Shown piece after piece: positions 4,888 to 54,920 of a stretch of 64,000 nucleotides of DNA. The stretch is from a bacterium (GTDB taxonomy: Bacteria; Patescibacteriota; Minisyncoccia; UBA6257; JAGOQP01). The stretch's first letter is position 1. Every line of letters begins with the position of its first letter. The position numbers were made by a program, and so were the translations under genes. Below the pieces are notes generated by a model, which was given only the letters and a program-made list of their open reading frames with translations, was not told the DNA's origin and did no database searches. The stretch spans positions 54,979-118,978 of the forward strand of contig JAKANP010000001.1 of NCBI GenBank assembly GCA_021812345.1, given 5' to 3'.

Positions 4888-6159
4888 ATGAATTATTTTT
4901 ACGCCACCATGGTATCGGTCGTAGGAACAAATTTTATTAATTTTTTTAGCTCTGTTTTTGAAGCAATGTCCTTAAAAGACGTGGCTGATATTTTTTTAAC
5001 TGCCTTGATTATAGGAGGTTTTTTGTGGCTTTTTAAAAAAACTAAAAGTGTTTCTTTGGCTTTAACTTCTATTATCGGTTTTATAATATTTTATTCTGTT
5101 GCTTATTGGCTCAATCTTTACACGGTTTTAAGTATTGCTAATGCTTTTTTGGGAAGCATTGTCGTTATTTTAGTAATTGTTTTCCAAAAAGAATTAAGAC
5201 GTTTTGTCGAGTGGATAGATATTTCTGCCATCAGAAAGAGATTCTCAAAAAATATAAAAGACCAAAAAATTTCCGGAGCTAAAGACGTGATTGATGTTTT
5301 GGCTTCAACTTTTTTTACGATGGCAAAAAGAAAAATAGGAGGATTAATTGTTTTTCCAGGAATAGAGTCAATAAGTTCTTTTGTAAGCGGAGGATTTGAT
5401 TTGGATGGAAAAATTTCCGAGCCGTTGCTTTTGAGTATTTTTGACACCTCATCTCCCGGACATGACGGGGCAATAATTGTAGAGCAAGATGTGATAAAAA
5501 AATTTGGAGTCGTTTTGCCACTATCGGAAAGAGATGATTATGAAAAATTAAAACATCTTGGAACTCGTCATCGATCGGCTCTCGGACTTTCTGAAAGAAC
5601 CGACGCTCTTTGCGTGATTGTTTCTGAAGAAAAAGGAAGAGTTTCTTTGGCTTTTGACGGAGCGATTGAAGTTGTCGAATCTCCGGAAGATTTAAAAAAT
5701 AAATTAAAGACGTTTTTGAATGTTTCCGATACTAACGCCTCAAAATCGAGATTGTTAAGCGCTCAATTATTTTCAAAAATAAGAAAAAATATACCCAATG
5801 CGTTACTGGCATTGTTTTTGGCTTTAATTTTCTGGCTTTTTATAAGTTATCCTCAGCTTGGTATAATTCAAAAAGATATTTTAGCTCCGGTAGTATTTAC
5901 TAATGTCCCCGATAATGCCACTATTGACCGACTGACATATTCTCAAGTGGACCTGACTTTTTTGGGGGCGGAAAAAGATTTCCAATTGCTTGGAACAAAT
6001 AATATAAAAGCGGTGGTTGATATATCAAGTAAAGTTAATAATACGACTACTCAATATTTGTCGGTTTATCTTAAGCCGGATAATATACAATACCCGCCAT
6101 CCTTGAAATTGATCAAGATAGATCCCAGTCAGATAGAATTTAGAATTAATTTCAAATAA
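4888..6159 (+). CDS. cdaA: diadenylate cyclase CdaA fused to a C-terminal TM + YbbR/CdaR-like domain
   Basis: Three N-terminal TM helices. DAC domain with DGA (HDGAIIV) and RHR (GTRHRSALG) motifs. A fourth TM follows, then a beta-rich YbbR-like segment (...VVFTNVPDN..IDRLTYSQVDLTFLGAEKD...). Confidence 0.8.
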   Translation: MNYFYATMVSVVGTNFINFFSSVFEAMSLKDVADIFLTALIIGGFLWLFKKTKSVSLALTSIIGFIIFYSVAYWLNLYTVLSIANAFLGSIVVILVIVFQKELRRFVEWIDISAIRKRFSKNIKDQKISGAKDVIDVLASTFFTMAKRKIGGLIVFPGIESISSFVSGGFDLDGKISEPLLLSIFDTSSPGHDGAIIVEQDVIKKFGVVLPLSERDDYEKLKHLGTRHRSALGLSERTDALCVIVSEEKGRVSLAFDGAIEVVESPEDLKNKLKTFLNVSDTNASKSRLLSAQLFSKIRKNIPNALLALFLALIFWLFISYPQLGIIQKDILAPVVFTNVPDNATIDRLTYSQVDLTFLGAEKDFQLLGTNNIKAVVDISSKVNNTTTQYLSVYLKPDNIQYPPSLKLIKIDPSQIEFRINFK

Positions 6160-16780: not shown

Positions 16781-17176
16781 ATGGATTCAAATATTGTTCA
16801 TAATATCAATTATCACGAGTTGGCTCAAGAAGTTAATGTTAAAAAAGAAGCCTCTCCCGAATTGTCGCATAAAGAAATAGTATCGAATGTTTTGGAAAAA
16901 AGCGGAATGCCTCCGATGTCTCAGCCAATTACGCCCGCTCCTTCGGTAACTCAATCTTCAAACAAAAACGATGATTCAATTTTGCCGGATTATGCGAAGA
17001 AATCCGATCCGGGTATTCAAAATAAAATTCAACATTTGGTGTCTTTAACTTTGGAAAAGGGATTGAAAGAGGGAATTAATTTTGCAAAAAAAGAGGATCC
17101 ATTTGTCATGGACGCCTATCACGATTCTCTTTCGGATGTTTTGGTTGATGAAATGAAAAAAAGAAAACTTATATAA
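16781..17176 (+). CDS. hypothetical protein, translationally coupled to the downstream ATPase
   Basis: Its stop overlaps the start of the next gene at 17176. No recognisable domain. Confidence 0.4.
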   Translation: MDSNIVHNINYHELAQEVNVKKEASPELSHKEIVSNVLEKSGMPPMSQPITPAPSVTQSSNKNDDSILPDYAKKSDPGIQNKIQHLVSLTLEKGLKEGINFAKKEDPFVMDAYHDSLSDVLVDEMKKRKLI

Positions 17177-19539
17177 TGCAAAGCGTTATTATCACTTTAA
17201 TTATTGTTGTGAGTTTGGCCTCGTTTTTGGGCATAATTTGGTATGTTCTTTTAAAACAACAGAGGGAAAAAATAAAAAAATCTTTAAATTTAAAATTGTT
17301 AACAATCAAAATGCCCCGTCCGGATTTAACGGATTCCAGAGAGCATAATTTCAAAGAAGAAATAAATTTTTCGGAACAGCTTTTCAGTTCTCTTGCCTCG
17401 CTCAAGGAGATGACTGCTTTTGAAGTTGCAGTCCATCATGTCGGCGAGGAAATATTTTTTTATGTGGCGGTTCCTGAAAAAATGGTTTCTTTTATCAGTC
17501 GTCAGATAGAAGGAATTTTTAAGGACTCTCAAGTAACGGCTTCTCCCGAATATAATATTTTTCAACCGGGAGGATTTAACGCCGGATTTTATTTAAAACA
17601 AGACGCTCATTATTCGTTGCCGTTAAGAACTTATCTTGAATCCGAAGCCGATACTTTTTCTCCAATAGTCAGCGGACTTTCTAAAATTAATGAAATTGGT
17701 GAAGGCGCCGTTATCCAAGTTTTAATAAAATCCGCCCCGGAAAGTTATAAGAAAGGCATAGTTTCAATAATAAATTCTTTAAAAAAGGGAGAGAGTTTCA
17801 AAAAAATTGCCTCCACTAAAGCCATCGATTTAAAAGGTTGGGCTGATGTTTTAAAAGATAAAAAACCTGAAGATGATAAAAAACCTTCCATTATCGATGA
17901 AGAATCAATAAAATCGCTTGAAAGAAAAATTTCAAAACCTCTTTTTAAAGTTAATTATCGCGTATTGGTTTCTGCCATCAATCAATTTCAAACGGAGAAT
18001 ATTTTAGACGGTATTGCCGGGTCATTTAATCAATTTGAAGCGCCATTAAAAAATAAATTTAAAATAAATAAAGTAAAAAATTTCCAAAAATTCGCTTATC
18101 AGTTTTCTTTCAGAGATTTTGACGATTCTCAAGCGATGATTTTAAACACCGAAGAGATGGCCGGAATTTTTCACATGCCTTCGTCTTCCACATTATCTCC
18201 AAAGATCAAATGGATAAAATCAAAAGAATCTCCTCCGCCCTCAGAACTTCCCGATAACGGAACTTTGATTGGCCAAAGCAATTTTAGAGGGGAAGTAAAA
18301 CCGGTTTACATAACCGAAAGTGACAGACGCAGACACGTTTATTCTATCGGTCAAACCGGTGTCGGTAAAACAACATTGATGGTGGATATGATTTGGGATG
18401 ATATAAAAAAAGGCAAAGGAGCTTGTTATATTGACCCTCACGGAGATGCCATTGAAACTATTTTAGGATTGATTCCTAAAGAAAGGATGGACGATGTCAT
18501 TGTTTTTGATCCGGGATACACAAAAAAACCTATAGGATTGAACATGCTTGAATACAATTTTGATCATCCCGAAGAAAAAACTTTTATTGTTAACGAAATT
18601 CAGGGAATTTTTAATCGATTGTTTTTAGCTGAAACCATGGGCCCGATGTTTGAACAATATATGCGCAATTCGCTTTTATTGCTGATGGAAGATGCCGTCA
18701 ACGAGCCGGCTACATTTATTGATGTCCCGAGAGTTTTAACCGACGAAGAATTTCGTATTAAAAAATTATCAAGAATTACCAATCCGGTGGTTATAGATTT
18801 TTGGACAAAGGAGGCGAGCAAAGTCGGAGGTGAAGCGTCTTTGGCGAATATGGCTCCGTATATTACTTCCAAATTTAATAATTTTATTGCCAATGATTAT
18901 TTGAGGCCGATTATCGGACAAGCTAAATCGTCTTTTAATTTCAGGCAAATAATGGATGAGAAAAAAATTCTTTTGGTTAATTTATCCAAAGGAAAGATAG
19001 GAGATATCAATGCCGGACTTCTTGGAATGATAATCACGGGAAAATTGCTTATGGCGGCGCTTTCTCGGGTGGATATGGCCGAATCGGAAAGAAATGATTT
19101 TTATCTTCACATCGACGAGTTTCAAAACTTTACCACCGATTCCATTTCCACTATTTTATCGGAAGCCAGAAAGTATCGTCTTAACTTGAATATAACCCAT
19201 CAATTTATTGCTCAGCTTGAAGAAAAAATAAGAGATTCTGTTTTTGGAAACGTCGGTTCTATGGTTGTTTTCAGAGTTGGCGCTCAGGATGCGGAATTTT
19301 TAATCAAGCAATTTGAACCCGTGTTTACGCAATCGGATTTGATGAATATAGACAACTTTAATGCTTACGCCAAAATTTTGATTAACAATCAAACGTCCAA
19401 GCCGTTTAATATGAAAACGGTAATGTATCCCAAGCCGGATGTTGAGCTGGCTCAAAAAATAAAAGAGCTTTCTTTCTTAAAATACGGAAAAGACAGAGTG
19501 GAAGTAGAAAAAGAAATTATGGAAAAACTGAGAAGTTGA
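17176..19539 (+). CDS. membrane-anchored P-loop ATPase of the FtsK/HerA/VirD4(TraG)-like type (T4 coupling-protein-like)
   Basis: N-terminal TM. Walker A SIGQTGVGKTT, Walker B FYLHIDEFQNF. The C-terminal RKYRLNLNITHQFIAQLEEKIRDSVFGNVGSMVVFRVG resembles the TraG/TraD C-terminal motif. Confidence 0.6.
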   Translation: MQSVIITLIIVVSLASFLGIIWYVLLKQQREKIKKSLNLKLLTIKMPRPDLTDSREHNFKEEINFSEQLFSSLASLKEMTAFEVAVHHVGEEIFFYVAVPEKMVSFISRQIEGIFKDSQVTASPEYNIFQPGGFNAGFYLKQDAHYSLPLRTYLESEADTFSPIVSGLSKINEIGEGAVIQVLIKSAPESYKKGIVSIINSLKKGESFKKIASTKAIDLKGWADVLKDKKPEDDKKPSIIDEESIKSLERKISKPLFKVNYRVLVSAINQFQTENILDGIAGSFNQFEAPLKNKFKINKVKNFQKFAYQFSFRDFDDSQAMILNTEEMAGIFHMPSSSTLSPKIKWIKSKESPPPSELPDNGTLIGQSNFRGEVKPVYITESDRRRHVYSIGQTGVGKTTLMVDMIWDDIKKGKGACYIDPHGDAIETILGLIPKERMDDVIVFDPGYTKKPIGLNMLEYNFDHPEEKTFIVNEIQGIFNRLFLAETMGPMFEQYMRNSLLLLMEDAVNEPATFIDVPRVLTDEEFRIKKLSRITNPVVIDFWTKEASKVGGEASLANMAPYITSKFNNFIANDYLRPIIGQAKSSFNFRQIMDEKKILLVNLSKGKIGDINAGLLGMIITGKLLMAALSRVDMAESERNDFYLHIDEFQNFTTDSISTILSEARKYRLNLNITHQFIAQLEEKIRDSVFGNVGSMVVFRVGAQDAEFLIKQFEPVFTQSDLMNIDNFNAYAKILINNQTSKPFNMKTVMYPKPDVELAQKIKELSFLKYGKDRVEVEKEIMEKLRS

Positions 19540-22488: not shown

Positions 22489-22559
22489 TGGGGGATCGTC
22501 TAATGGTAGGACATGGGCCTTTGAAGCCCAGTATCGGGGTTCGAATCCCTGTCCCCCAG
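22489..22559 (+). tRNA. tRNA-Gln (anticodon UUG)
   Basis: UGGGGGA acceptor pairs with UCCCCCA. D-loop AAUGGUA. Anticodon arm UGGGC-CUUUGAA-GCCCA. T-arm CGGGG-UUCGAAU-CCCUG. Discriminator G. CCA is not encoded. Confidence 0.85.
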
Positions 22560-22561
22560 CA

Positions 22562-22830
22562 AAATAAATACACTCTTGTGGTGTATTTTATTTTGCATGG
22601 GAAGTCCCGAAACTGCTTTCGGGACGTCAGGGATTTTAAACGACGTAGCTTGTTCCGCTCAGCAGAGCGGAACGCGAGTCGGTGCTTAGACCAATTCTAC
22701 TCGACGGAGTAGAATTGAGTCGAAGGAGATTCCCTGCCGCGCCCGTCCGAAACTTTAGTGAAGGAGGGTCCCCCAGCCGATTTTTAAGCGTAAAAATCGC
22801 GTCGGAATGAGTACATTTCCGACGTCGTCC
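22562..22830 (+). ncRNA. Candidate structured RNA of unknown class (six strong hairpins, locally GC-rich)
   Basis: Perfect stems at 22567-22587 (6 bp), 22604-22625 (9 bp), 22652-22672 (8 bp), 22693-22716 (10 bp), 22778-22799 (9 bp) and 22800-22824 (8 bp). No ORF. GC is well above the local background. Confidence 0.3.
22768..22777 (+). repeat. 10-nt direct repeat of the tRNA-Gln(UUG) 3' end (gtcccccagc)
   Basis: Identical 10-mer at 22551-22560 (tRNA 3' end) and 22768-22777. Confidence 0.5.
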
Positions 22831-22948
22831 ACTATCTCTTTATTTTGTGTACAGCAAGCAACTTGGGTCAAAAATTTAAAGAATAGTAAGTTTCTTGTAT
22901 TAATCTTCCATTTGCTGATATACTGAATAAACAATTAAAAAAATATAT

Positions 22949-23074
22949 ATGGGCAAAAGAAACACAAGCACCGGCAGACGCAGGCCGTCAAAATCTCATA
23001 AGACTAAAAAAAGACTGGAGGCAAAGAGACTTATGCTTGAATCAAAGAAAAAGAAACATCTTTCAAAAAAATAA
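22949..23074 (+). CDS. possible small highly basic protein (41 aa)
   Basis: MGKRNTSTGRRRPSKSHKTKKRLEAKRLMLESKKKKHLSKK. Composition resembles a small ribosomal protein or nucleic-acid-binding peptide. It falls below the ORF-track size cutoff. Confidence 0.25.
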   Translation: MGKRNTSTGRRRPSKSHKTKKRLEAKRLMLESKKKKHLSKK

Positions 23075-23302
23075 AATCCGAACAAAAAATCGTCAATCAG
23101 GCGGTTTTTTGTTTCTTCTGTGCTTTGCAAGCTGCAAACGGACGCAGTAAAATAAATTCGTGCAACCGGGGGTCGGGAGATCGTCTTCAATTAATAAATT
23201 AATCGGCAAAATATATGAAAAAAATAAATATCAATAAAATGCGTAAAAAAATACTTTAATTATTAATTTGTAAAAATTTCAAAAATGATTTAATATAAAC
23301 AT

Positions 23303-24277
23303 ATGAACAAAAAAATTAATATTTTATTTTTATCGCTCTTTGCCTTGATCGGAGTTGTTTTTGTAATTCCTCATTCCGTGTTAGCTGATGGACCGGAGTT
23401 TTTACCTCCTGCATGTGGACAATACGATGGAAATCAACGTACTTGTAGTTTTTATACGGTTAGTCGTGATATGAATATAACTCCCGAACTTACAAACTCA
23501 TTTGTGTTTGTAACTCATTTGAGAAATAAAGATATGATAGGATATGTAGATCAAAGTCTAACAAATGCGGACTATAAGTTGCAGAATTTTGTCTCAACGA
23601 CAGGGATTATTGATGAAGCAGTTGATAAAAATTATTTTAATGAAAATGGCGGAATAAATAATCTTTTTACAAAAACAGATATTATAAAAGTAGCAGCGTC
23701 TTCTTCGTGTCCGAGTGGATATCAAATAATCGACGTTCCCATAGACCAGAATGGAAATAGTACATGCGCCAAAGAAGCAGCTCCAAAACCAGAGACAAAA
23801 AAACATATGTTTAGTATATGGGTAGTAGCAACAGATAAATACGATTCTCCTTCCGCTAAACCCGGAAATTTGGTGCCTTGGAATCAGGGAGACCACATTG
23901 ATCCATTTGTTCAGACAACTTTAGGTAATCCAATTACTATAAAAATATTAAGATACAGTCCTCTGGGAATTTTGAATAATAAAATAATTTTTTATCGCTC
24001 TCAAGAAATTTATTATATTAATCAAGGAACCGAAAAAACCATCTCCAGACAAACAAACTTATCGGCACCTACCGTTCAAGGGATCAAACCATTTTCGGCG
24101 GCACAAACAAATGTTGTAACAAATATCCAGGCAAATACAACTACCACAACTGTTTCTGCTACAACTAGTCAAAATGACAACAAGCCGGTTACCGTCAATT
24201 CTCCATCTTTAATTGGTTATATAAAATCTTTTTTCTCCGGATTTGGTAATCTTGTGCGAATACTTTTCCGCTTCTAA
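23303..24277 (+). CDS. secreted hypothetical protein (signal peptide, Cys pairs, C-terminal hydrophobic tail)
   Basis: N-terminal MNKKINILFLSLFALIGVVFVIPHSVLA signal-like segment. No catalytic motif recognised. Confidence 0.5.
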   Translation: MNKKINILFLSLFALIGVVFVIPHSVLADGPEFLPPACGQYDGNQRTCSFYTVSRDMNITPELTNSFVFVTHLRNKDMIGYVDQSLTNADYKLQNFVSTTGIIDEAVDKNYFNENGGINNLFTKTDIIKVAASSSCPSGYQIIDVPIDQNGNSTCAKEAAPKPETKKHMFSIWVVATDKYDSPSAKPGNLVPWNQGDHIDPFVQTTLGNPITIKILRYSPLGILNNKIIFYRSQEIYYINQGTEKTISRQTNLSAPTVQGIKPFSAAQTNVVTNIQANTTTTTVSATTSQNDNKPVTVNSPSLIGYIKSFFSGFGNLVRILFRF

Positions 24278-24280
24278 CTA

Positions 24281-24661
24281 ATGATTCCTTACACATATCA
24301 ATTTCTTTTCTCTCTGTTTGGAACCGTTGTAATTGAAACGGCGGTTCTTATTATCCTGGTGCGATTAATTTTTAAAATCGACCAACAAAAAATCGAATTA
24401 AAAGTTCTCTTGACTGCGGGTGTCTTTGCCAACTTAAGTACAATATCTTATGTTTGGTATGTTATTCCCATTTTGACATTTTGGAATCTTCCACTCGCCA
24501 TTGCTATCGGAGAGATATTCGCTTTTCTGATGGAAGCTATTTTTTACGAGGTATTTTTAAAATTTAACTTCAAAAGAGCTCTTATGGTATCGTTTTTATG
24601 TAATATCAGTTCGTTCATATTAATGACCCCACTACTTAAAGCATTTATCCTTTTTTCTTAA
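24281..24661 (+). CDS. small polytopic membrane protein (about 4 TM)
   Basis: Hydrophobic helices throughout. Starts 4 nt after the upstream stop. Confidence 0.45.
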   Translation: MIPYTYQFLFSLFGTVVIETAVLIILVRLIFKIDQQKIELKVLLTAGVFANLSTISYVWYVIPILTFWNLPLAIAIGEIFAFLMEAIFYEVFLKFNFKRALMVSFLCNISSFILMTPLLKAFILFS

Positions 24662-24823
24662 TTGAAACATATTTAAATCCAGGTTTTTTAAAATAGGTTT
24701 AAATTTTTTATATTTGATAATAATTCAATTTAAAACAAAAACAAAACGGGCTAATGGAAAAAGTATCCTATAGTGATATACTCAAATTAGCAAACAAATT
24801 TTCAAAAAAAGAGAGGGGGGGAT

Positions 24824-25912
24824 ATGATACTACTGCCCAAGATTGCTATTCGTGGCTTAGGGCGAGAAATTATTTTTATTCAAGGGGGAATGGGTGCAGG
24901 TATTTCTCTTGCGCCTCTTGCCGGAGCGGTTGCTCGGAGAGGTGGCGTTGGAACGGTATCTTTTGTCGCCTTGGATAGATTTGTTGAGCGTCGCATAGGC
25001 CATAAAGTGAGCCATCATGAAGCCGCCGAACTTGAAATTCAAGAAGCGCGACGAATTTCCTGTGGCAATGGCGCAATCGCCATTAATTGTATGGTCTTGA
25101 TTGAAAGGACATATATTCCTTCAATAGAAGGCGCAATTGATGGCGGAGTAAATGCAATTATTGCCGGTGCGGGTTTGCCTATGACTTTGCCTGAAATTGT
25201 AGATAATGCACCCGTTTCGCTAATTCCCATCATTTCTTCCGGTAGGGCATTGGAACTAATATGCCGTCGCTGGAGCCGTTATGAAAAAATACCCGACGCA
25301 GCAATTCTTGAAGGGCCACTTGCGGGAGGACATCTTGCTTTTAGAGCTGAAGATATTTTCAAACAAGAATTTCAGTTGGAAGCGATATTTGAACGAGTTA
25401 AAATAATCGCTCAGAAAAACGGAAATTTTCCGATAATTGTGGCTGGTGGCATTTATACTCGTGAAGATATTATTTGGTGGATTAATGCCGGAGCCGATGG
25501 TGTACAGATGGGGACTCGCTTTGCCGCAACACACGAAAGTGGCGCATCAAAAGAGTTTAAAAATGCCATTGTTGCTTGTTGCTCAGAGGATATAGAAATA
25601 GCAACCAACCCGGGATCACCGGCAGGATTACCATTTCGTGTTATCCGTACTTCACCTGGGTACCAACAAGCACTGATTCATGGAAGAAAAATTTTATGCG
25701 ATAAGCAATATCTATTGAATAAAGACAAGAGCGGCCGTTTGGGATGCCCCGCTTTGGATGGTAATGATGCTTTTTGTATCTGTAACGCTCTTTTATCCGC
25801 AGCGGATTGTAATAACGTATCCGAATTGCCGATCTTTACCGTTGGAGCGAATGCGGCTCGTGTAGATCGCATTCTCTTCGTTGATGAATTGATGGATGAA
25901 TTAATAGGGTGA
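24824..25912 (+). CDS. NMO-family FMN oxidoreductase (nitronate monooxygenase / FabK-like TIM barrel) with C-terminal Cys-rich extension
   Basis: IIFIQGGMGAGISLAPLAGAVARRGGVGTV matches the NMO/FabK GGMG.G.S N-terminal signature. GG-rich RBS upstream. GC is about 48% against a background near 35%. Confidence 0.72.
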   Translation: MILLPKIAIRGLGREIIFIQGGMGAGISLAPLAGAVARRGGVGTVSFVALDRFVERRIGHKVSHHEAAELEIQEARRISCGNGAIAINCMVLIERTYIPSIEGAIDGGVNAIIAGAGLPMTLPEIVDNAPVSLIPIISSGRALELICRRWSRYEKIPDAAILEGPLAGGHLAFRAEDIFKQEFQLEAIFERVKIIAQKNGNFPIIVAGGIYTREDIIWWINAGADGVQMGTRFAATHESGASKEFKNAIVACCSEDIEIATNPGSPAGLPFRVIRTSPGYQQALIHGRKILCDKQYLLNKDKSGRLGCPALDGNDAFCICNALLSAADCNNVSELPIFTVGANAARVDRILFVDELMDELIG

Positions 25913-25990
25913 CGCTTAGCTAATTTCTACTAAGCGTCTTTTTTTAAATAATTTAAAATAAAAAATTTATCATATTAATGATACAAATTA

Positions 25991-26566
25991 TTAAATTAAA
26001 TTATCTTTGTTTTTTATAAAAACCAAAAAGAATCCGATTACTCCGCCTAATAAATCAAAACTTAAATCTCCCATCGTATCAAGATTGGTCGGTTGGTCTA
26101 ACAAGTTAAGATGAACTCTCCAATTTACCAATTTCTCTCCTAAAATATCCAAACGAAAGGCGTCATGAGCGCATTCATACATTTCCCAAGCTACCGATAC
26201 CAAAGCTATGATTGCTATGATTTCAATAAACATTTTCCATTTTTCTTCTTTCAATAATGAATATTTCGGATAAAGCTTATCAAACAGAATAAGTCCGATG
26301 GCTAAAGCAACTCCAAAAAATAAATGTTCAAAAGCGTCATATCCAAAAAATCCCTCAATGCATCCTAAATATTTTGAACAAACATTATTTCCCGCCCAAT
26401 CGTAAAGAAGCTCTCCCAAGCTGGTGATTAAAAGCCAGACCGCCGTAAAATAAAAAAGTAAAATTTTTATTTTTTTTATTTCTGTTCCTTTTGATAATTT
26501 TGTAAAAAAAATAACTATCGCCGAAATTACAAAAGATAAAATTATTACATATGTTGGCGTATCCAT
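25991..26566 (-). CDS. hypothetical polytopic membrane protein
   Basis: 191 aa with multiple TM helices and conserved Cys/His (YECAHDAF). Confidence 0.45.
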   Translation of the reverse strand: MDTPTYVIILSFVISAIVIFFTKLSKGTEIKKIKILLFYFTAVWLLITSLGELLYDWAGNNVCSKYLGCIEGFFGYDAFEHLFFGVALAIGLILFDKLYPKYSLLKEEKWKMFIEIIAIIALVSVAWEMYECAHDAFRLDILGEKLVNWRVHLNLLDQPTNLDTMGDLSFDLLGGVIGFFLVFIKNKDNLI

Positions 26567-26691
26567 TTGTTATTACTTATTAATACGGATAAAAAGTGAT
26601 TTTGTTTTCTTTACGGCGAGTATGTGACATATATGGACAAAAATCATTTTTATATTATACTCTTTTCAGATATTTGAAAAAGGAGGGCTCT

Positions 26692-27714
26692 GTGAAAAAG
26701 GGCTTTTATCTGGAGAATTGGCACAAGTTGTCTTTGCCTGTAGTTCAAATTGCCAACGAATTAAATCCGTTTTATAACAAGGGAGTTGTTTTTTATGCGG
26801 CATTGGCTAACCATTTGCCTTATGAAAACATAAAATTTATTACGGTTTATGGGCTTTTACAAAACGCATTGGATGTTGGGGCTCTTCAAAAGACAAAGAT
26901 TTTGGTTGAGGCAACCTCCGGCAATACCGGCGTGGCGTTGGCTTTGATGGCAAAACATTTTGGGATTAACAAGGTTAAGCTTGTGGTGGCTCCCGATATC
27001 CCCGATGGAAAGCGTTATCCGCTGATTCTTGCCGGAGCGGAATTGATTTATCCCAAGGAAGGATTGAGTGCTATCGCAACTGCCAGAGAAATGGGAGGCG
27101 GGGGATGGAAGCCGGATGGTTGGCAACCTGATAGCGGATATTTGAATCTTGACCAATATGCCAATCCTTTTGGCGCCGAACCTCATTCAACTTTTACCGC
27201 TGATAAGATAGTAGAAAAGCTTTTTTATAACACTCCGTCTATTTTTGTTTCCGGCATTGGGACCGGAGGGACTATGGTTGGTATCGGTAAATATATCAAG
27301 CGCAATAATATGCGCGCGGTAAATATCGGCGTGCTTTTGAAGGCGGGGAGTGAAATTCCCGGAGTAAGAGATTTGAATCGGATGAAAGAAATAACTTTGC
27401 CTTGGAGAGATTTTTCAGACGGCATTGTTGAAATAGGTTCAAGGCAATCGTATTTGGCGAGTCTGTGGCTTAACTGGGTTATGGGTATTACTCCCGGTCC
27501 AAGCAGCGGCTTTGCTTATTTGGGAGCTCTGAAGTTTATCAAGAGCCTGATTGATTCCAAGTTGGATTCTTTTAGGGATGATCATGACAAGGTTAGAGTT
27601 GTTGTTATTTTTCCCGACGGAAATCGCCCCTACGGAGATAGGTATATGGCAAACTTGCCCTTTGAGTGTTTGAGTCCGGCAACAGCGCCATTGCCTTGGA
27701 ATTGGAAAGTATAG
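26692..27714 (+). CDS. PLP-dependent enzyme of the cysteine synthase / Trp-synthase-beta (fold type II) family
   Basis: VEATSGNTGVALALMA matches the CysK SGNTG loop. Glycine-rich GIGTGGTMVGIG PLP-phosphate loop. GTG start at 26692 with AAGGAGGG 7 nt upstream. GC is about 47%. Confidence 0.72.
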   Translation: MKKGFYLENWHKLSLPVVQIANELNPFYNKGVVFYAALANHLPYENIKFITVYGLLQNALDVGALQKTKILVEATSGNTGVALALMAKHFGINKVKLVVAPDIPDGKRYPLILAGAELIYPKEGLSAIATAREMGGGGWKPDGWQPDSGYLNLDQYANPFGAEPHSTFTADKIVEKLFYNTPSIFVSGIGTGGTMVGIGKYIKRNNMRAVNIGVLLKAGSEIPGVRDLNRMKEITLPWRDFSDGIVEIGSRQSYLASLWLNWVMGITPGPSSGFAYLGALKFIKSLIDSKLDSFRDDHDKVRVVVIFPDGNRPYGDRYMANLPFECLSPATAPLPWNWKV

Positions 27715-27755
27715 TTTTGATTTTTAATTTATCCGCCCGAAAACGGCGGATTTTT

Positions 27756-28487
27756 TTATTTTTTTTCGCGCAAAATACAAAACGGAGTCATCTCGTCAGC
27801 TTGTCCTAAGGGATTATCTTTAAATGCCTGCTGAATAAATTTTTCGGTAATTGATCTATTTGATTTTCCGACAGAAAAGGCTCCTAAATAATTGGCGTCC
27901 AATATCACAGCTTCGTTTCCAAATTCTTTTTTTATTTTTTTTGCCGCGCCATCCGGATCCATCGGCGCTAATTTTGCATGATGAGCATATTCCAAAATAT
28001 TAAATGAGAGGGGACAGTCGATGGATTTTGCTCTTTTGCCGCAAATCACGTAAAACAAACCTTTGATTCCGAGCGGGCGAGTAATTGCCGAAATTGCGGC
28101 CGCCAAAAAAACTCTCGGATATCCGGCTTCTTCTATTAAAAGTTGCATTGCCATCGGAGTGCCGTGGCCAAAACCTCTAAAATCTTTTGTTCCGTATTTA
28201 TTGTTGACTTTTCTTGCCAAGAATCTGGCAAAAGAAGTCGGTTTAATATCGTTTAGATTTATAATTCTTCCTTGAGTGATAGCCAAGACCTTTTCGCTTA
28301 CAAAAATTATATCGTTTGGCTCCAGATAAGGCGTTATATATTTTTTTAATTCTTCAATAATATCGCTTTTTTCGGTGATGAGGGCTGTTCTTATGGGCAA
28401 TCTTAAATATGTTTTTGAACCGATTTGAATTTCCAGATTTTTCCCCTTGTTGGGTTTTATTTCTTTGTTGTTGATTTCATTTTTCAT
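27756..28487 (-). CDS. CofE-like protein (F420-0:gamma-glutamyl ligase family fold)
   Basis: IIFVSEKVLAITQGRI and surrounding pattern resemble the CofE/F420-ligase family. The identification is by pattern only. Confidence 0.5.
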   Translation of the reverse strand: MKNEINNKEIKPNKGKNLEIQIGSKTYLRLPIRTALITEKSDIIEELKKYITPYLEPNDIIFVSEKVLAITQGRIINLNDIKPTSFARFLARKVNNKYGTKDFRGFGHGTPMAMQLLIEEAGYPRVFLAAAISAITRPLGIKGLFYVICGKRAKSIDCPLSFNILEYAHHAKLAPMDPDGAAKKIKKEFGNEAVILDANYLGAFSVGKSNRSITEKFIQQAFKDNPLGQADEMTPFCILREKK

Positions 28488-28525
28488 CGGTTGTATTATA
28501 ATATTAATTCAAATAATATCAAAAT

Positions 28526-28903
28526 ATGTTAATAAGAGTTTGTTTATCAAAAATTCACAGAGCAACAGTAACCGAAGCCGATTTGAATTATGTCGGTTCA
28601 ATTACGATTGATAGCGAACTTTTGGAAAAAAGCGGAATGAGGCCTTTTCAATATGTTAATATCACCAATGTCTCAAACGGCGTTTTTTGGCAGACATATA
28701 TAATGCCGGGTAAAAAAGGAAACGGAGATATTTGCTTAAATGGCCCTCCTGCAAGGCATTTTCAACCGGGAGATAAAATTATAATTTTAGCCGAAAGTCT
28801 GGTTGAGCCGTCCGAAATGAGAGATTTAAATCAAACTATTGTCTTTGTGGATGATAAAAACAAAACAACCGAAGTTAAGATAAATAAAATGTCTCAATTA
28901 TGA
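28526..28903 (+). CDS. panD: aspartate 1-decarboxylase (pyruvoyl-dependent)
   Basis: MLIRVCLSKIHRATVTEADLNYVGSITID... matches the PanD N-terminus, including the GS self-cleavage site. HFQPGDKIIIL is also present. Confidence 0.85.
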   Translation: MLIRVCLSKIHRATVTEADLNYVGSITIDSELLEKSGMRPFQYVNITNVSNGVFWQTYIMPGKKGNGDICLNGPPARHFQPGDKIIILAESLVEPSEMRDLNQTIVFVDDKNKTTEVKINKMSQL

Positions 28904-28910
28904 GACATTT

Positions 28911-29153
28911 TTAGTAAATAAAAGTTTCAATAACCACAATAACGTTTATAAAAAAGTTTGCCACGTTGGATATAATTATCGGTTTTTCATCATGAACAAT
29001 TCCATAGATCGTCCAAACAATGTTTGCCAATGAATAGCATATCCAAGAAAATGCCGATTTATCCAGAAAATTTTTAAGTTTTTCCGGATGAGGATAGGAT
29101 TCAAATTTTTGACTGATTCTCTTTCTTATGTTCTGATGTAAAAAAGCAAGCAT
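28911..29153 (-). CDS. hypothetical small membrane protein
   Basis: 80-aa ORF with 2-3 hydrophobic helices. Confidence 0.3.
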   Translation of the reverse strand: MLAFLHQNIRKRISQKFESYPHPEKLKNFLDKSAFSWICYSLANIVWTIYGIVHDEKPIIISNVANFFINVIVVIETFIY

Positions 29154-30385: not shown

Positions 30386-32140
30386 TCAAGAAATTAACAA
30401 TTCAAAATCATCAATCATTTTTTTGATTATATTAAATCCGTCTTGCCAAAACTTGTTTGATTTTATATTGATTCTTGCTCTTGCAAGAATTTCCATCGGA
30501 TAAGCGGATCCGCCGGCAGATAATATTTTCAAAATATTTTTAGCGTATTTGGGTCCGTTCTTTTTAAATCTGTTAAAAAGATGCAGGGCAATTATTTCAT
30601 TTACGGCGTAAGAGTAAATCCAAAACGGATTTTCAAAAAAATGAGGAATAGTCATCCATTCCCACCTGAATTTTTGGGGGACCGATATTTTTTCTCCGAA
30701 TTGTTCTTTAATCAAAGCAAGATATTCCTCATTCATTATTTTCAGATTATTGCTGTCTTTTGTTATATTCCCAAACGTTTTTTCTTCCCAGATTGCCAGA
30801 TAGCCCATCTTAAAAATTAATGTAAGGATATTGTCGAGCATTGACCCTAAAATATAAATCTTATCTTTCACCTCATTAGTTTCGGAAAATAATTTATCAA
30901 AAACGATAAGTTCGGACAAAGACGAAGATAATTCCATCAAAAATATTGACGGTTCGCGAACGACAAATTTGTGATGACCGGAAAGGTCATCGTGGACAGC
31001 ATGCCCGACTTCATGAGAAAGAATAATCAAGCTTTCCAGGTCTTTGTTAAAAACAACGTTTATGTATGACGGAATTCTGTTTGAAACCGAAACGGTAAAA
31101 TTCATCGGGAATTTGCCTTGTCTGTTCTGGGCGTCGATATGATTTGAATCAAAAATTTTTTTAGCCGAATTTCCATAAACCGGAGAAAAGTCAAAAAATG
31201 ATTTTAAGATGATTTTTTTGGCTTGAAAAAAATCTATTTTTCTCATCGATGCCGGAACTTTAAATGGAATATTCAGATCATAAGCGGTTGCCTTTTTTAA
31301 TTTAAGAAGTTTTGATTTCAGTTCAAAATATTGCTGGAAAATAGAGATGTTTTTTCTGATTAATGTAAACATCTGATCCAAAATGGCTTTTGAAATGTAA
31401 TTTTGGCTTACTCCTTTTTTCTTTTCTCCGATGATGTCTTTTATGATGATTTCATAAATATAAGACAGTGTCGGACCGATTCCATTTTCAAATTCTTCAA
31501 AATACTCGTCGTAAGCCCGTTTTCTGAGTTTCTTATTTCCAGAATAAAAATACGATTCAATTTCTTCAACTGTAAGAATCTTCGTTTCATCTCCAACCTT
31601 GAGCTTGAATTTCAGATTTTTTATGAGCAAAGAATATATTTGTTTCAACGATTTAACTCCGATATTTTTTTCGGAAATCAAATTACCATCCGTTTGCCTA
31701 ACAGCTAACTCGTTTTGGCGTATTTGTCTTAATTCGTGCTTAAAATCTTTTCCGGCCAAAGACATTAATCTTTTGGCGTTTTGTTCATCGAGTTTTTTCC
31801 ACCATCGGTCAAAAAATATAAGGCGGTCATCAAAATTATTCAGTATCTTTTCCGTGTCGGTTTTGTTTTTATTTGTTTCCAAATCAAAAACATTTTCACC
31901 TTGCTTAATTTCAAAATAAGCGTCAATTATGTTTTTTTGTTGATGATATAAGTCGATGAGTTTTAACAATTTTAAGAAATTTTTTGAAGAAATGTTTTTT
32001 CTTAATTTATTTTTATAGCTTTCTATAGATAGAACATTTTTCTCCAAATTAAAAATCGCTTTCTCGATAAAATTCGGATTATTTTCATCAAAAATATCAT
32101 TTAAGTTCCAACGGGGCAAAGATTTTGTGTTCGCCCTCAT
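30386..32140 (-). CDS. pepF: oligoendopeptidase F (M3 family zinc metallopeptidase)
   Basis: HEVGHAVHD HExxH motif in an M3B-like 584-aa protein. Confidence 0.8.
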   Translation of the reverse strand: MRANTKSLPRWNLNDIFDENNPNFIEKAIFNLEKNVLSIESYKNKLRKNISSKNFLKLLKLIDLYHQQKNIIDAYFEIKQGENVFDLETNKNKTDTEKILNNFDDRLIFFDRWWKKLDEQNAKRLMSLAGKDFKHELRQIRQNELAVRQTDGNLISEKNIGVKSLKQIYSLLIKNLKFKLKVGDETKILTVEEIESYFYSGNKKLRKRAYDEYFEEFENGIGPTLSYIYEIIIKDIIGEKKKGVSQNYISKAILDQMFTLIRKNISIFQQYFELKSKLLKLKKATAYDLNIPFKVPASMRKIDFFQAKKIILKSFFDFSPVYGNSAKKIFDSNHIDAQNRQGKFPMNFTVSVSNRIPSYINVVFNKDLESLIILSHEVGHAVHDDLSGHHKFVVREPSIFLMELSSSLSELIVFDKLFSETNEVKDKIYILGSMLDNILTLIFKMGYLAIWEEKTFGNITKDSNNLKIMNEEYLALIKEQFGEKISVPQKFRWEWMTIPHFFENPFWIYSYAVNEIIALHLFNRFKKNGPKYAKNILKILSAGGSAYPMEILARARINIKSNKFWQDGFNIIKKMIDDFELLIS

Positions 32141-50918: not shown

Positions 50919-51980
50919 TCAGGCTTTAGCCGGGTTTGTAACGTGAGAATCGGATGTGATGTTAAGCCATCTTTCGATAGCCATCGATACGGTTATCCCG
51001 ACGAGACTTCCCGTGATGGTGAACGTGATGTAAGGAGTCAACAGCATCAAAGACATTTGTTCGCGAGTAAGATATCTGAACGTCAAATACCAAATTCCAT
51101 TACTGAAAACGGAAGCAATTGCGTGATAAATAAAGTTATTTCTGCTTCTGGCCCGACTGATGAGAGCAAAACTGATATTCTGAGAAATTGCCAAAATCAT
51201 CAGAATGTAAGCTTGGTCGATGGTTTTGGATATAACCGCAAACAAAATACCGATCGTTGCCAATATTGATGCCGGAACCAGCGGAGAAACAGAATCCTTA
51301 TTTTTCAGATGAGAGTCGGCGGAAGTTCCCACCAATCTTTCGATGGTCATGGAAACTTTCTGCCCCGACATTCCTCCAAGAATCGATCCGAAAAGATACG
51401 GCGGGAAAAGGTCAAACGTCAATTTCGCCATAATTAACTCTCTCCACATAAAATACCACAGAACTCCGTCAACAATCGATATCAATGCATGATAAGTGGC
51501 ATTATTTGTGTTGCGTGAACGTCTTACAGCCGTAAAGCCGGCATCCTTCATGAAAGCCAGCGCCGCCAGCGTCATCAATGCCAAAGCGCTTTTTCTGGCA
51601 AGAATTATTGACAGAAGAATCAAAATTCCCATCATCACCAAAAGAAATACCTGAGCCATCTTTGGAGTTGAAGTATTCTTGTTTGGCTTGGTTGTTATAT
51701 TGAACAACTTTTCGATCTTCATTGAAAGCGCGGCTCCGCTTACGCTTCCAAAAACAGTAGCTACGGTGTATGGAACCCACAAAATCAAAGTCATGTTTTT
51801 ACTGACCAACATTTTTAATGTGGAAAAGAAGACAAGATTTGAAAGCAACATAGTAAAGGCGTAGTAAATAAAACTGTTTCTATTTCCCGCCCTGCTGGTT
51901 AACGAATAACAGGTATTCTGTATGTATGCCATTAAAACCAACAGCAAAACGAAAGACAGCGAAAGTGTCATCTTGTCCAT
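50919..51980 (-). CDS. polytopic membrane protein built from three internal repeats (each with S-R-x3-RN-x2-[FIY]-Y ... PY ... GS..G...SM.IE[RK][LW] motifs)
   Basis: Repeats are visible by eye around residues 20-95, 140-235 and 260-353 (LTSRAGNRNSFIYY / AVRRSRNTNNATYH / LISRARSRNNFIYH, and SMKIEKLFNITT / SMTIERLVGTS / SMAIERWLNITS). GC is elevated (~45%). Confidence 0.55.
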   Translation of the reverse strand: MDKMTLSLSFVLLLVLMAYIQNTCYSLTSRAGNRNSFIYYAFTMLLSNLVFFSTLKMLVSKNMTLILWVPYTVATVFGSVSGAALSMKIEKLFNITTKPNKNTSTPKMAQVFLLVMMGILILLSIILARKSALALMTLAALAFMKDAGFTAVRRSRNTNNATYHALISIVDGVLWYFMWRELIMAKLTFDLFPPYLFGSILGGMSGQKVSMTIERLVGTSADSHLKNKDSVSPLVPASILATIGILFAVISKTIDQAYILMILAISQNISFALISRARSRNNFIYHAIASVFSNGIWYLTFRYLTREQMSLMLLTPYITFTITGSLVGITVSMAIERWLNITSDSHVTNPAKA

Positions 51981-52112: not shown

Positions 52113-54920
52113 TTATGCCGGATTAGGCAGGAATGATTCCCAATCCAATTTGGCATTTTCCTTAATAAATTTATGAATTTGATCGGCGGGAAGCACACGG
52201 ACAAGAATTGGCGCACTTTGAGGTCCCTCTGCCGGAAGTCCCACAAATGAGACTCCGGAACTGTTAGGAGGAAATCCAAGTTCACCGTACTGATCGGTAT
52301 GAACATCGGCTCCCGAGCTGTGATAAATCGCGTATCCGGTAATTACTGTTCCCGTAAAATGTTTGTCGCCAACCGTTTTCAAGGTTATGCGATGATTCAT
52401 AATTCTATTGTAATTACCGCGACGAATATCATTGCGAACCATATTAAGCAATGTGTCGCCCCAATTTACACCTTGACCGGTAGGAGTATCTCGAAAATCG
52501 ATGCCGTATTCATATCCATCCGGAATTTGGAACGTTCCCCACGCAATGTATTGATTTCCAAAGAGAGGAGATTTAATCGAATGCTCGATCCATTCCGGAT
52601 GATTTGCCCAATGAGAAAGAGCAAGCAACTTAGCCTTAAGGATCCGGGCATAAATGAACCCTTCCGTTATCGTTTTGTCGGTTGTCTTAAGAATATGATT
52701 TCCGGTTCCATCGCTGATAATACCAACGTCGCGACGGTCGAAATCGGTTCCATTAAAATCACTGATTCCCTTGACAATGAGTCCGGACTTTTTAGCCCGA
52801 CGCAAAACAGCATCAAAAAATTCAACACCTTCCAAAACAAGAGAATCGATAGCTTCCTCAATTTGATCTTGAGCCCAATGAATTCCTCTGTACCAAAGTT
52901 GTGTTAACATAAACCTTCGCGCTTTTTCAAAATAAAAACGCAACTTATCCGGATCACTTTCATTCATCGCTCTATCACTCATATCCATAAGCTTTTTCTG
53001 AATTTGAGTGTAATTCATAGCGCGCGGATCCGGTTGTTTGTGGTTCTCATAATGATGTCCGTGGACGCCATCGTCATTCATGGTAACGCTATGAATTGGC
53101 ATAGCATCATTTTCAAAAAGACCGTCACGTTCCATCATCTTAAAACTTGCTTCAGTAATACCGACAACTTTCCCGTTGGGCATACTGATTATTTCCCGCG
53201 AAGGAGAACCAATATGAGTATCGGTAATTTCTTCAACCCATATATATTTCGGTTTGGGAACCGTGATTCCTCTTGCTTTGCTTTCCTTAATTCGTATTGA
53301 TGTTTTTTGAAGAGACTCAGTAGACCAGACAACCGGTTGGAATTTTCCATCAACCATTTTAAGTGTCAAAACTCCACTTTCAAATTGCTCGTTAAGCATA
53401 GAATTCGAAAGCTTGTGAACTTTCCTGATGGTGTCGCGAAGAGTTCCTCTGATAAAACGCTTATCAATCGCAATCGGCGCGACAAATACCTGAGCCGAAC
53501 CTCGTTTTCCGTCCGCATCCACTTGGCGTTCCGTAGAACGATAGTTGACGGCAAAAGGATGGCAAATAACAACATTATCCGCCATGCGTTCACGAAGAAC
53601 CTTCGGACCGTAAGAATTGCAGTAATTAGCCAACAACTCGTCACTCGGATCGTCGTTTCTGGGAATATTAATCTCAATACTTTGGCCGTTGTTTCTCGCA
53701 AAAGTGCTTCCGATGCCGATAACCTTGGAATTCGGAATAGTTTCTTCGATTCTCTTGATCACGAAGCGCATTACTTTGTAGTAATAACGCTTATGTTCTT
53801 GAGATGCTATGTTTGACGCCGCAGTGCGAGCCAGTTCATTCGAAACAGATTCCAAATTTTTTCTCAACTCATCGGCTAGAGAATGATCTTTTTTGTTGAT
53901 TGCGTGAGCAATTTGAATTTCCAACAAACGCTTTTGAACGTTCAATTCGTTTTGAATCCGTCTCATAAAATACAACTCTTCCCAATAAGCGCCGGCGGCA
54001 ATAATTTCTTCATCTCTGTAACCAAGAACAACCAATATCTGTCCGTTGAACGTCGGGTTCTTTTTGGTGCCGACAATCTTGGACCAACCTCTCATGCTTT
54101 CGGTGAACAATTCCGCGGTTGTCTGAAACATTATCTCGTCATGCGGTTGTTTTTCGATGATTCTTTTTGCCTTTTCGGCATAATCACGATCGAGATCGTC
54201 AGGATTGACATTGCGTCCGGAAAGAAGAGCTCGAAGAACCTTAATCGGTCCGGCTGCTTTCTTGGTATCGATATCAAGAATGTTGGTCAAAATTATCGCG
54301 GAATGCTTATAATAGCAAGCAATTTCAAGCGGTTGGCGCGCAGGATTCTCGGATATTACGCTGCTGTAAGGAATTCCCAAATTGACTCCGTTAAGAAATG
54401 TGATAGCGGCAGGGCTATCGTCATTGTCTGAACGAATTTCAAACGGTTTGATAAATGTTCCGGTTTCGAAATGCAACGGTTCCCCGCTCATTTCGGAAAT
54501 TTCTTCGCCTAGTCGCAAGATGCCCTTAACAAATCCGGTAGAAGATGAATCTTTCCGTCCGATTGTATTGCCGTGCAGTTGATTCCACTTTCTTACAAAT
54601 AATTCATAAGGAATATATGAAACGGCAGAATAAACTTTATTCATTTCCAATCGATGACGAACGGCAATTTTAATTTCCGCAAGAACCTTGAAAGTCCATA
54701 TCAATTCGATAATCTTACGTTGAAAATTGCGTTTATTAAAATTATATTCCGGCTTTTTCAGATGTTCAGCAAATTCTTCCTTAATTGCCTCGTACAAATA
54801 GTCGATGCCTTTGTCTTTTAACGTGCCGTCATAAATTAATTTTTCGATTCGATCAATAAGTCCGGAAATTTTCCAAGTATCTTTCTTCTTCCTTGCGGAA
54901 ACTTCCTTCTTGGAGCTCAT
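52113..54920 (-). CDS. large (935 aa) two-part protein: unknown N-terminal ~550-aa region plus C-terminal calcineurin-like metallophosphoesterase domain
   Basis: Metallophosphatase motif I (WVEEITDTHIGSP, D-x-H), probable motif II (NDDGVHG), motif III (ISDGTGNHIL, GNH), and downstream His-containing motifs. No P-loop. GC is about 45% against ~35% background. Confidence 0.6.
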   Translation of the reverse strand: MSSKKEVSARKKKDTWKISGLIDRIEKLIYDGTLKDKGIDYLYEAIKEEFAEHLKKPEYNFNKRNFQRKIIELIWTFKVLAEIKIAVRHRLEMNKVYSAVSYIPYELFVRKWNQLHGNTIGRKDSSSTGFVKGILRLGEEISEMSGEPLHFETGTFIKPFEIRSDNDDSPAAITFLNGVNLGIPYSSVISENPARQPLEIACYYKHSAIILTNILDIDTKKAAGPIKVLRALLSGRNVNPDDLDRDYAEKAKRIIEKQPHDEIMFQTTAELFTESMRGWSKIVGTKKNPTFNGQILVVLGYRDEEIIAAGAYWEELYFMRRIQNELNVQKRLLEIQIAHAINKKDHSLADELRKNLESVSNELARTAASNIASQEHKRYYYKVMRFVIKRIEETIPNSKVIGIGSTFARNNGQSIEINIPRNDDPSDELLANYCNSYGPKVLRERMADNVVICHPFAVNYRSTERQVDADGKRGSAQVFVAPIAIDKRFIRGTLRDTIRKVHKLSNSMLNEQFESGVLTLKMVDGKFQPVVWSTESLQKTSIRIKESKARGITVPKPKYIWVEEITDTHIGSPSREIISMPNGKVVGITEASFKMMERDGLFENDAMPIHSVTMNDDGVHGHHYENHKQPDPRAMNYTQIQKKLMDMSDRAMNESDPDKLRFYFEKARRFMLTQLWYRGIHWAQDQIEEAIDSLVLEGVEFFDAVLRRAKKSGLIVKGISDFNGTDFDRRDVGIISDGTGNHILKTTDKTITEGFIYARILKAKLLALSHWANHPEWIEHSIKSPLFGNQYIAWGTFQIPDGYEYGIDFRDTPTGQGVNWGDTLLNMVRNDIRRGNYNRIMNHRITLKTVGDKHFTGTVITGYAIYHSSGADVHTDQYGELGFPPNSSGVSFVGLPAEGPQSAPILVRVLPADQIHKFIKENAKLDWESFLPNPA

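Follow-up and report, generated by a model that had tools for sequence, protein, structure and literature searches.

Gene content and arrangement of the locus

We analyzed a 64,000-nucleotide stretch of DNA from a small-genome bacterium of the Patescibacteria (contig JAKANP010000001.1 of assembly GCA_021812345.1, positions 54,979 to 118,978, forward strand; hereafter the window) and in particular three genes at 26.7-28.9 kb, which encode a pyridoxal phosphate (PLP)-dependent enzyme, a CofE-like protein and a PanD-like protein and which we call the trio. The initial annotation of this DNA had grouped them with an upstream gene for an NMO-family flavin mononucleotide (FMN) oxidoreductase in one candidate cluster for small-molecule biosynthesis. 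The four genes are indeed real and their family assignments are right (PF03060, PF00291, PF01996 and PF02261; Table 1). However, the real unit is the trio, a conserved module in Patescibacteria, and the NMO gene and the membrane-protein gene upstream of the PLP gene are unrelated neighbours of it.

The window has a guanine-plus-cytosine (GC) content of 35% and contains core genes (a ribosomal-protein operon, secY, tRNA synthetases, prfB, ftsEX, dnaX, scpAB, mraY, ftsW and murG). Close homologues of its genes were all found in assemblies of Patescibacteria, also known as the candidate phyla radiation (CPR), named Paceibacterota, Minisyncoccia or Parcubacteria. NCBI assembly GCA_027423215.1 contains the same sequence, and a sister genome, GCA_021837745.1, carries an NMO homologue 91% identical to that of the window, with most neighbouring genes at 85-95% identity.

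The four genes do not form an operon. The NMO and PLP genes are split by the membrane-protein gene on the minus strand, which was found in the closest relatives only; the PLP and CofE-like genes are convergent, and the CofE-like and PanD-like genes are divergent with 38 bp between them. For the PLP gene, the GTG start at 26692 was favored over the first start of the open reading frame (ORF) at 26596, since it fits homologues of about 340 amino acids, the Shine-Dalgarno (SD) site AAGGAGGG and the promoter-like site. The hairpin that separates the PLP and CofE-like genes is probably a terminator common to both, as judged from its sequence. The best promoter-like site for the CofE-like gene (TTGATA-16-TATAAT, 11/12 matches) lies on the minus strand at 28522-28495.

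Table 1. Features of the locus, with positions counted from the first letter of the window
Feature	Coordinates	Strand	Remarks
NMO-family FMN oxidoreductase with C-terminal four-Cys subdomain (FabX-like)	24824-25912	+	PF03060, E 2e-33; outside the module
Membrane protein, DUF2238-like	25991-26566	-	Outside the module; sister homologue, 85% identical, carries PF09997
Promoter-like site TGGACA-16-TATACT (26634-26661) and SD site AAGGAGGG, upstream of the PLP GTG start	26634-26684	+	
Fold-type-II PLP beta-substitution enzyme, CysM/aspergillomarasmine A synthase-like, 340 amino acids	26692-27714	+	PF00291, E 5e-26
GC-rich hairpin and T-run (7-bp stem with 5 G-C pairs, then TTTTTTATTT)	27731-27751	.	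Between the convergent PLP and CofE-like genes
CofE-fold protein, 243 amino acids, putative nucleotide-dependent amide ligase	27756-28487	-	PF01996, E 9e-12, N-terminal part only
38-bp divergent intergenic region, CofE-like/PanD-like	28488-28525	.	Overlapped by the best promoter-like site for the CofE-like gene
PanD-like pyruvoyl-dependent decarboxylase, 125 amino acids, altered substrate pocket	28526-28903	+	PF02261, E 4e-40

Linkage of the trio across Patescibacteria

In close relatives, as in the window, the three genes lie next to one another. Moreover, a distant Paceibacterota genome (L007) carries the three genes side by side and without NMO, encoding proteins 44% (PLP enzyme), 67% (PanD-like) and 64% (CofE-like) identical to those of the window. 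The trio is also present in L087, L088, L172 and L173, each time in a different order or orientation, and NMO is absent from all four. In L172, the right flank of the window is kept (SemiSWEET, dnaX, pepF, scpA and scpB) and the trio is inverted as a block. Overall, divergent Patescibacteria keep members of the trio together in at least six different arrangements of order and orientation, amid unrelated flanks. Neighbouring trio genes run in the same direction, 55-85 bp apart, in L172 (10001-11853) and L173 (8930-11162), the pairs being CofE-like then PLP and CofE-like then PanD-like. An operon organization thus exists elsewhere, in contrast to the separate transcription units of the window. 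The next gene downstream of PanD-like in the window (28911-29153, minus strand) encodes a SemiSWEET-like transporter of 80 amino acids with sub-threshold NCBIfam matches; it adjoins the trio in L001 and L172 as well, whereas genomes at greater distance do not have it there.

With the CofE-like family as anchor, a scan of metagenomes yielded 80 loci, of which 76 were distinct. A PanD-like gene was found within 3 kb of the CofE-like gene in 42 of these distinct loci and a PLP enzyme gene in 24, with NMO in none. In the subset of 18 distinct loci whose CofE-like gene was flanked by 3 kb or more on each side, PanD-like was present in 14, PanD-like and PLP together in 9, neither partner in 4 and NMO in none. 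When every non-overlapping ORF within 5 kb of the CofE-like gene was clustered, the trio families alone recurred (81, 35 and 32 loci), the next commonest family being found at 9 loci. The linked PLP enzymes are strongly diverged (25-59% identity), so that the association of the trio outlasts long divergence; the CofE-like and PanD-like proteins remain 55-80% identical, and the CofE-like family is at 60-80% across Patescibacteria. A genome scan anchored on a narrow alignment of the PLP enzyme retrieved mostly generic cysteine synthases, through their GTGGT pattern, and only two true relatives.

Three independent housekeeping genes could also be neighbours by chance or history, merely syntenic within one lineage. 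Their separate transcription units with their own promoter-like sites, as well as the well-flanked loci in which the CofE-like gene stands alone, are consistent with such an explanation, but we consider it very unlikely, given that the adjacency survives rearrangement, unrelated flanks and divergence of the PLP enzyme to only 25-45% identity, and that no further family recurs nearby.

The co-occurrence proposed by the initial annotation thus held for the PLP, CofE-like and PanD-like genes and failed for NMO. Joint action of all four enzymes on one modified amino acid or cofactor-like product was suggested by their position within about 4 kb, both in the window and in the sister genome, and by the raised GC content and rare G-rich SD sites common to the NMO and PLP genes. 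However, NMO was missing from 76 of 76 distinct CofE-like loci and from L007, L087, L088, L172 and L173, and it stood among unrelated neighbours in L004, L170, L171 and Desulfobacca. The synteny with the sister genome spans the whole housekeeping region and is therefore uninformative on function. A four-gene cluster that includes NMO is effectively excluded.

Properties of the three proteins and a proposed pathway

The PLP enzyme scored far below the NCBIfam cutoffs for CysK (TIGR01139; 83 bits, cutoff 351), CysM (TIGR01138; 95 bits, cutoff 394) and the cysKM subfamily (98 bits, cutoff 344), and also far below that of the SbnA equivalog. By these scores it is not a housekeeping CysK or CysM, in agreement with the initial annotation, which had set it apart from canonical cysteine metabolism. 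Its nearest solved relative by sequence was aspergillomarasmine A synthase from Aspergillus (PDB 8H4H and 8H4Q; E 9e-35), with CysM next (E 4e-18) and SbnA also among the matches. The same synthase was the best fold match of an AF2 model of high predicted local distance difference test score (pLDDT 95), with a template modelling (TM) score of 0.83 and 29% identity. Aspergillomarasmine A synthase, which resembles cysteine synthase, links O-phosphoserine with the L-aspartate amine by forming a C-N bond. Bacterial relatives of its clade carry a rhodanese domain, which makes sulfur chemistry as plausible for the PLP enzyme as C-N bond formation. Lys48, Ser76-Gly77, Gln155, the GTGGT loop and Arg226 are conserved in the window protein. 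K48, S76 and G77 are invariant, T75, N78 and T79 are present in at least 90% of the closer homologues, and Q155, G190-T191-G193 and S271 are invariant or nearly so. The beta-replacement machinery is thus intact in its residues (the PLP lysine, the TSGNT loop, the equivalent of Gln142, the GTGGT phosphate loop and the equivalent of Ser272).

The CofE-like protein matched PF01996 with 45 bits, above the gathering score, and reached only 30.3 bits against the CofE equivalog TIGR01916 (cutoff 180.65). Its sequence match to solved CofE in the PDB was marginal (E 0.03). However, the sole significant PDB fold match of its AF2 model (pLDDT 85) was CofE of Archaeoglobus fulgidus (TM 0.55-0.57, 17% identity; E 3e-9 and TM 0.57 against 2PHN with Foldseek). 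CofE itself is an amide ligase dependent on GTP and Mn2+; it proceeds via an acyl phosphate and adds glutamate (PMC10861534). The window had no match to a cofC, cofD or fbiC-type family, and only the PanD-like and PLP families recur near the CofE-like gene. Many CofE-like homologues (P0334, P0336, P0338, P0344, P0359 and P0360, and those of many loci in L089-L168) have a conserved extra N-terminal segment of about 100 amino acids with the motif ...TGFxIVYxPxxDG...DEAHILYMEATELLRSRA..., which matches no Pfam family and which the window copy lacks. A CofE-like/PanD fusion was considered and rejected, since the N-terminal extension of these homologues of 335-367 amino acids is not PanD.

The PanD-like protein narrowly passed the NCBIfam model for the PanD equivalog TIGR00223 (117.2 bits, cutoff 106). 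Thirteen strictly conserved residues have been reported in aspartate decarboxylases (PMC3314653). Ten of them (K9, H11, Y22, G24, S25, T57, Y58, G73, I86 and N112) are retained in 43-46 of 46 CPR homologues of the window protein, and the self-processing and catalytic set Lys9, His11, Tyr22, Gly24-Ser25, Thr57, Tyr58 and Asn72 is invariant in all 46, including the window protein. Arg54, Ala74 and Ala75 alone are changed: in every one of the 46 homologues Arg54 has given way to F, L, Y, S or H, Ala74 is Pro in 44 and Ala75 is Pro in 45, and Trp is invariant at position 55. Proline lacks a backbone NH. In PanD, Arg54 binds the side-chain carboxylate of the substrate (PMC3975893). In the Mycobacterium tuberculosis enzyme, the carboxylate of the inhibitor pyrazinoic acid occupies the position of the substrate carboxylate, where Arg54 and the backbone NH of both Ala74 and Ala75 hold it, and the R54A mutant is inactive (PMC6969166). 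Thus, with these replacements, all three carboxylate contacts are lost together.

To place these changes, we inspected the 150 best representatives from a library of 1.84 billion proteins. The best 20 or so lacked Arg54 and mostly had Pro-Pro, and most of the others had Arg54 with Ala-Ala (91 sequences); a single sequence among the 150 combined Arg54 with Pro-Pro. By its residue pattern, the PanD-like protein therefore belongs to a discrete subfamily that has kept the decarboxylation machinery and lost the aspartate pocket. The initial annotation had regarded it as a source of beta-alanine, which is doubtful because the site for the aspartate side-chain carboxylate is dismantled. The protein probably makes an as yet unassigned amine-containing metabolite instead.

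The statement of the initial annotation that the rest of pantothenate and coenzyme A synthesis is not nearby was borne out, as Pfam detected no pan, coa, acp, fab or F420-biosynthesis family among the 61 window ORFs scanned, 58 of them of at least 100 amino acids and several without any family match. Likewise, no panB, panC or panE family was detected among the recurrent neighbours of the CofE-like gene, and a search of the literature on coenzyme A or PanD in Patescibacteria found nothing useful.

Could the trio nevertheless serve ordinary precursor supply? The PLP enzyme would then be a cysteine synthase that uses O-phosphoserine or thiosulfate, the PanD-like protein would make beta-alanine through substitute carboxylate contacts, the CofE-like protein would ligate beta-alanine (for example, as a pantothenate synthetase analogue) or act elsewhere, and the clustering would reflect coenzyme A synthesis. 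Such a role would account for the PanD-like score above the TIGR00223 cutoff, for the retention of all catalytic and self-processing residues, for the Arg found at position 56 in 15 of the 46 homologues, and for the CysM-type PGxR motif of the PLP enzyme, whose best NCBIfam scores were those of cysKM and CysM. However, it has to accommodate the loss of Arg54 and of both backbone-NH donors in 44-46 of 46 homologues, the inactivity of the M. tuberculosis enzyme when Arg54 alone is mutated, the lack of detectable panB, panC, panE and coa families in the window and among recurrent neighbours, and a PLP enzyme nearer to a C-N bond-forming enzyme than to CysM. We regard it as unlikely.

We propose instead that the trio encodes a three-step pathway from a beta-substituted alanine to an amine and then to an amide, a reading to which we give roughly an even chance of being right. 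In the first step, the PLP enzyme would form aminoacrylate from O-phospho- or O-acetyl-serine and add a nucleophile to yield a beta-substituted L-alanine; candidate nucleophiles are sulfide, which would give cysteine, and an amine, as used by aspergillomarasmine A synthase and SbnA. In the second, the PanD-like protein would self-process at Gly24-Ser25 to the pyruvoyl enzyme and decarboxylate a non-acidic beta-substituted alanine to a 2-substituted ethylamine, rather than aspartate to beta-alanine. A non-acidic substrate is suggested because the carboxylate site is replaced by Phe/Leu54, Trp55 and Pro74-Pro75. In the third, the CofE-fold protein would use GTP or ATP to turn a carboxylate into an acyl phosphate and then couple it to an amine, giving an amide-linked product. 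Gene linkage, family and fold assignments, the kept catalytic residues and the loss of three carboxylate-binding positions are observed. The catalytic activity of each protein, the order of the steps, the nucleophile, the acyl partner and the ligation by the CofE-like protein are what we infer from the families, folds and residues described above.

In the boldest reading, which we consider distinctly unlikely, the trio would supply the cysteamine end of pantetheine and coenzyme A by a previously unrecognized route. The PLP enzyme would make cysteine from O-phosphoserine and sulfide, the PanD-like protein would be a pyruvoyl-dependent cysteine decarboxylase releasing free cysteamine, and the CofE-fold ligase would join cysteamine to pantothenate or 4'-phosphopantothenate. 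If true, this route would bypass the near-universal CoaB and CoaC steps in these reduced genomes.

The nearest solved homologue of the PLP enzyme and its match to SbnA also bring to mind a metabolite of the aminopolycarboxylate or ethylenediamine type, built along the lines of aspergillomarasmine A, ethylenediamine disuccinate (EDDS) and staphyloferrin B. Here, the PLP enzyme would join O-phosphoserine to the amine of an amino acid to give an N-substituted 2,3-diaminopropionate, the PanD-like protein would remove the carboxylate beside the free amine, and the CofE-like protein would add glutamate or another acid. A larger, non-aspartate PanD-like pocket would suit a bulkier side chain, and addition of glutamate is the known chemistry of CofE. 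In contrast, an arginine would be expected to be kept for an anionic side chain, no exporter, importer or metal-related gene recurs nearby, and the degree to which the CofE-like and PanD-like proteins are conserved between lineages (60-80%) resembles that of core rather than secondary metabolism. The rhodanese domain in bacterial relatives of the synthase clade hints at sulfur chemistry. We consider such a product unlikely.

Several observations also weigh against the three-gene pathway that we prefer. Only around half of the well-flanked loci had a linked PLP gene, the CofE-like gene had neither partner nearby in 4 of these 18, and a close PLP homologue in L086 stands without the other two genes. 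In the window, the trio genes are separate transcription units, and neither neighbour clustering nor an RNA scan of 22.0-30.5 kb revealed a transporter, regulator or riboswitch that would hint at a product, tRNA-Gln being the only RNA element found in that interval. The PanD-like protein is still just above the NCBIfam cutoff for PanD; moreover, most homologues have Arg or His at residue 77, and this residue and the Arg at position 56 in 15 of 46 could bind a carboxylate in a new way. Finally, the ligase activity of the CofE-like protein is predicted solely from its modelled fold.

Neighbouring genes, base composition and comparison with known enzymes

Among 61 window genes (mean GC content 34.9%, standard deviation 3.5), NMO (44.4%) and the PLP gene (44.1%) have the two highest values. 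The initial annotation was therefore right that they are unusual compared with their surroundings, though its figure of 47-48% was not reproduced. The GG-rich SD sites that it described for both genes are likewise real and rare. Start codons in the window are mostly preceded by AT-rich sequence, and a G-rich SD-like motif is recognizable in 6 of the 61 genes, including NMO, the PLP gene, pepF and two unannotated ORFs at 50.9-54.9 kb; NMO, the PLP gene and these two ORFs are the four highest-GC genes of the window and all have the motif.

The foreign origin that had been proposed for NMO and the PLP gene on these grounds is weakly supported. The GC content at third codon positions (GC3) of NMO is 0.325, compared with a window mean of 0.313, so that its extra GC sits in codon positions 1 and 2, that is, in amino-acid composition. 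CPR homologues are 70-91% identical, and the sister genome has comparable GC contents for NMO and the PLP gene (43.8% and 42.8%) and the same SD sites, indicating a feature inherited in the lineage and no recent import. Recent horizontal transfer as the source of the high GC was thus rejected for NMO and weakened for the PLP gene. The PLP gene alone of the two, with a GC3 of 0.437 and 63% identity to its sister copy, compared with 85-95% for most neighbours, shows a pattern that suggests exchange among CPR lineages. A gene for a pepF-like M3 peptidase (30386-32140, minus strand), preceded by a GGAGG SD site, is 40% identical to its sister copy, most flanking genes being 85-95% identical; like the PLP gene, it looks in its sequence like an allele replaced from another lineage.

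Other parts of the window also stood out. The two ORFs at 50919-51980 and 52113-54920 (minus strand; 353 and 935 amino acids) have no significant Pfam match, GC contents of 41.6% and 41.7%, GC3 values of 0.49 and 0.40 and G-rich SD sites, and the pair may be a foreign or fast-evolving island. The region at 22489-24661, which comprises tRNA-Gln (22489-22560) followed by two unannotated genes (324 and 126 amino acids, no Pfam match), does not align with the sister genome, where a DUF4256 gene occupies the position; it is a small variable region beside a tRNA. A 787-amino-acid protein (17176-19539, plus strand) weakly matches the type IV secretion coupling protein family (TrwB) and has a sister counterpart with DUF8128 at the same position, and a 423-amino-acid protein (4888-6159, plus strand) contains a diadenylate cyclase domain of the DisA type.

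The NMO protein is not FabK, judging from its score against TIGR03151 (59.3 bits, cutoff 453.1), and its best solved relative is FabX of Helicobacter pylori (E 2e-58, residues 18-360). FabX (PDB 7E1Q) is an FMN-dependent decanoyl-acyl carrier protein dehydrogenase/isomerase whose C-terminal subdomain binds a [4Fe-4S] cluster via C300, C304, C308 and C320, with His182 as the catalytic residue (PMC8626469). H170, C292, C308, C318 and C320 of the window protein are invariant in 112 of 112 homologues and C329 is not conserved. The Cys-rich tail pointed out by the initial annotation is thus real, and it is probably the iron-sulfur subdomain of a FabX-related subfamily, cluster binding being suggested by the conserved cysteines. 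This subfamily is also present in Desulfobacca and Nitrospirales. NMO stands alone among unrelated genes in the CPR genomes L004, L170 and L171 and in Desulfobacca, and no fatty-acid synthesis family was detected in the window or near the NMO homologues in L004, L170, L171 and L169. A role as an SbnB-like oxidase partner of the PLP enzyme was rejected, since the two do not co-occur.

The initial annotation thus pointed to a genuinely non-canonical locus, and a non-canonical small-molecule module is indeed present there, but its boundary and chemistry had been drawn wrongly: the locus contains two re-purposed enzyme subfamilies in a conserved module. Patescibacteria have very few biosynthetic genes, so a small-molecule module conserved across their lineages at 60-80% identity probably serves a core need. 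Public pipelines label the trio "aspartate 1-decarboxylase", "F420-0:L-glutamate ligase" and "cysteine synthase", so that metabolic reconstructions would infer synthesis of beta-alanine, F420 and cysteine; at least the first two of these labels are probably mistaken. Two new enzyme subfamilies are represented, one a PanD scaffold whose specificity pocket has been rebuilt and the other a CofE-fold enzyme outside F420 biology, and through the trio a new pathway to an amine or cofactor could come to light in this uncultivated radiation.

The NMO protein shares with FabX the triose-phosphate isomerase (TIM) barrel and the C-terminal Cys subdomain. H170 corresponds to FabX His182, the FMN contacts Asn99, Glu175, Gln240 and Thr243 of FabX align with identical residues, and Arg164, a contact of the acyl carrier protein, is kept. 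In contrast, FabX Thr130 is Met in the window protein, and the cysteine spacing differs (C-x15-C-x9-C-x-C, compared with C300-x3-C304-x3-C308-x11-C320 in FabX), two of the four FabX cysteines being aligned. With aspergillomarasmine A synthase, the PLP enzyme has in common the N-terminal LNPFY motif, the PLP lysine, the TSGxT loop, the PGxR arginine and the PW motif, but it lacks the C-terminal rhodanese domain (340 compared with 525 amino acids).

The CofE-like protein has, over its full length, the same predicted overall fold as A. fulgidus CofE (PDB 2PHN and 7ULD) and FbiB's N-terminal domain. It differs from CofE in its low identity (17%) and in its setting, no F420-biosynthesis family being detected near the window gene. 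Finally, the PanD-like protein is 38% identical to M. tuberculosis PanD, with the same fold and length, and retains the Gly24-Ser25 self-cleavage site of the pyruvoyl type found in known PanD enzymes (Escherichia coli, M. tuberculosis and H. pylori). Unlike them, it is linked to genes for CofE-fold and CysK-like proteins and not to panB or panC.

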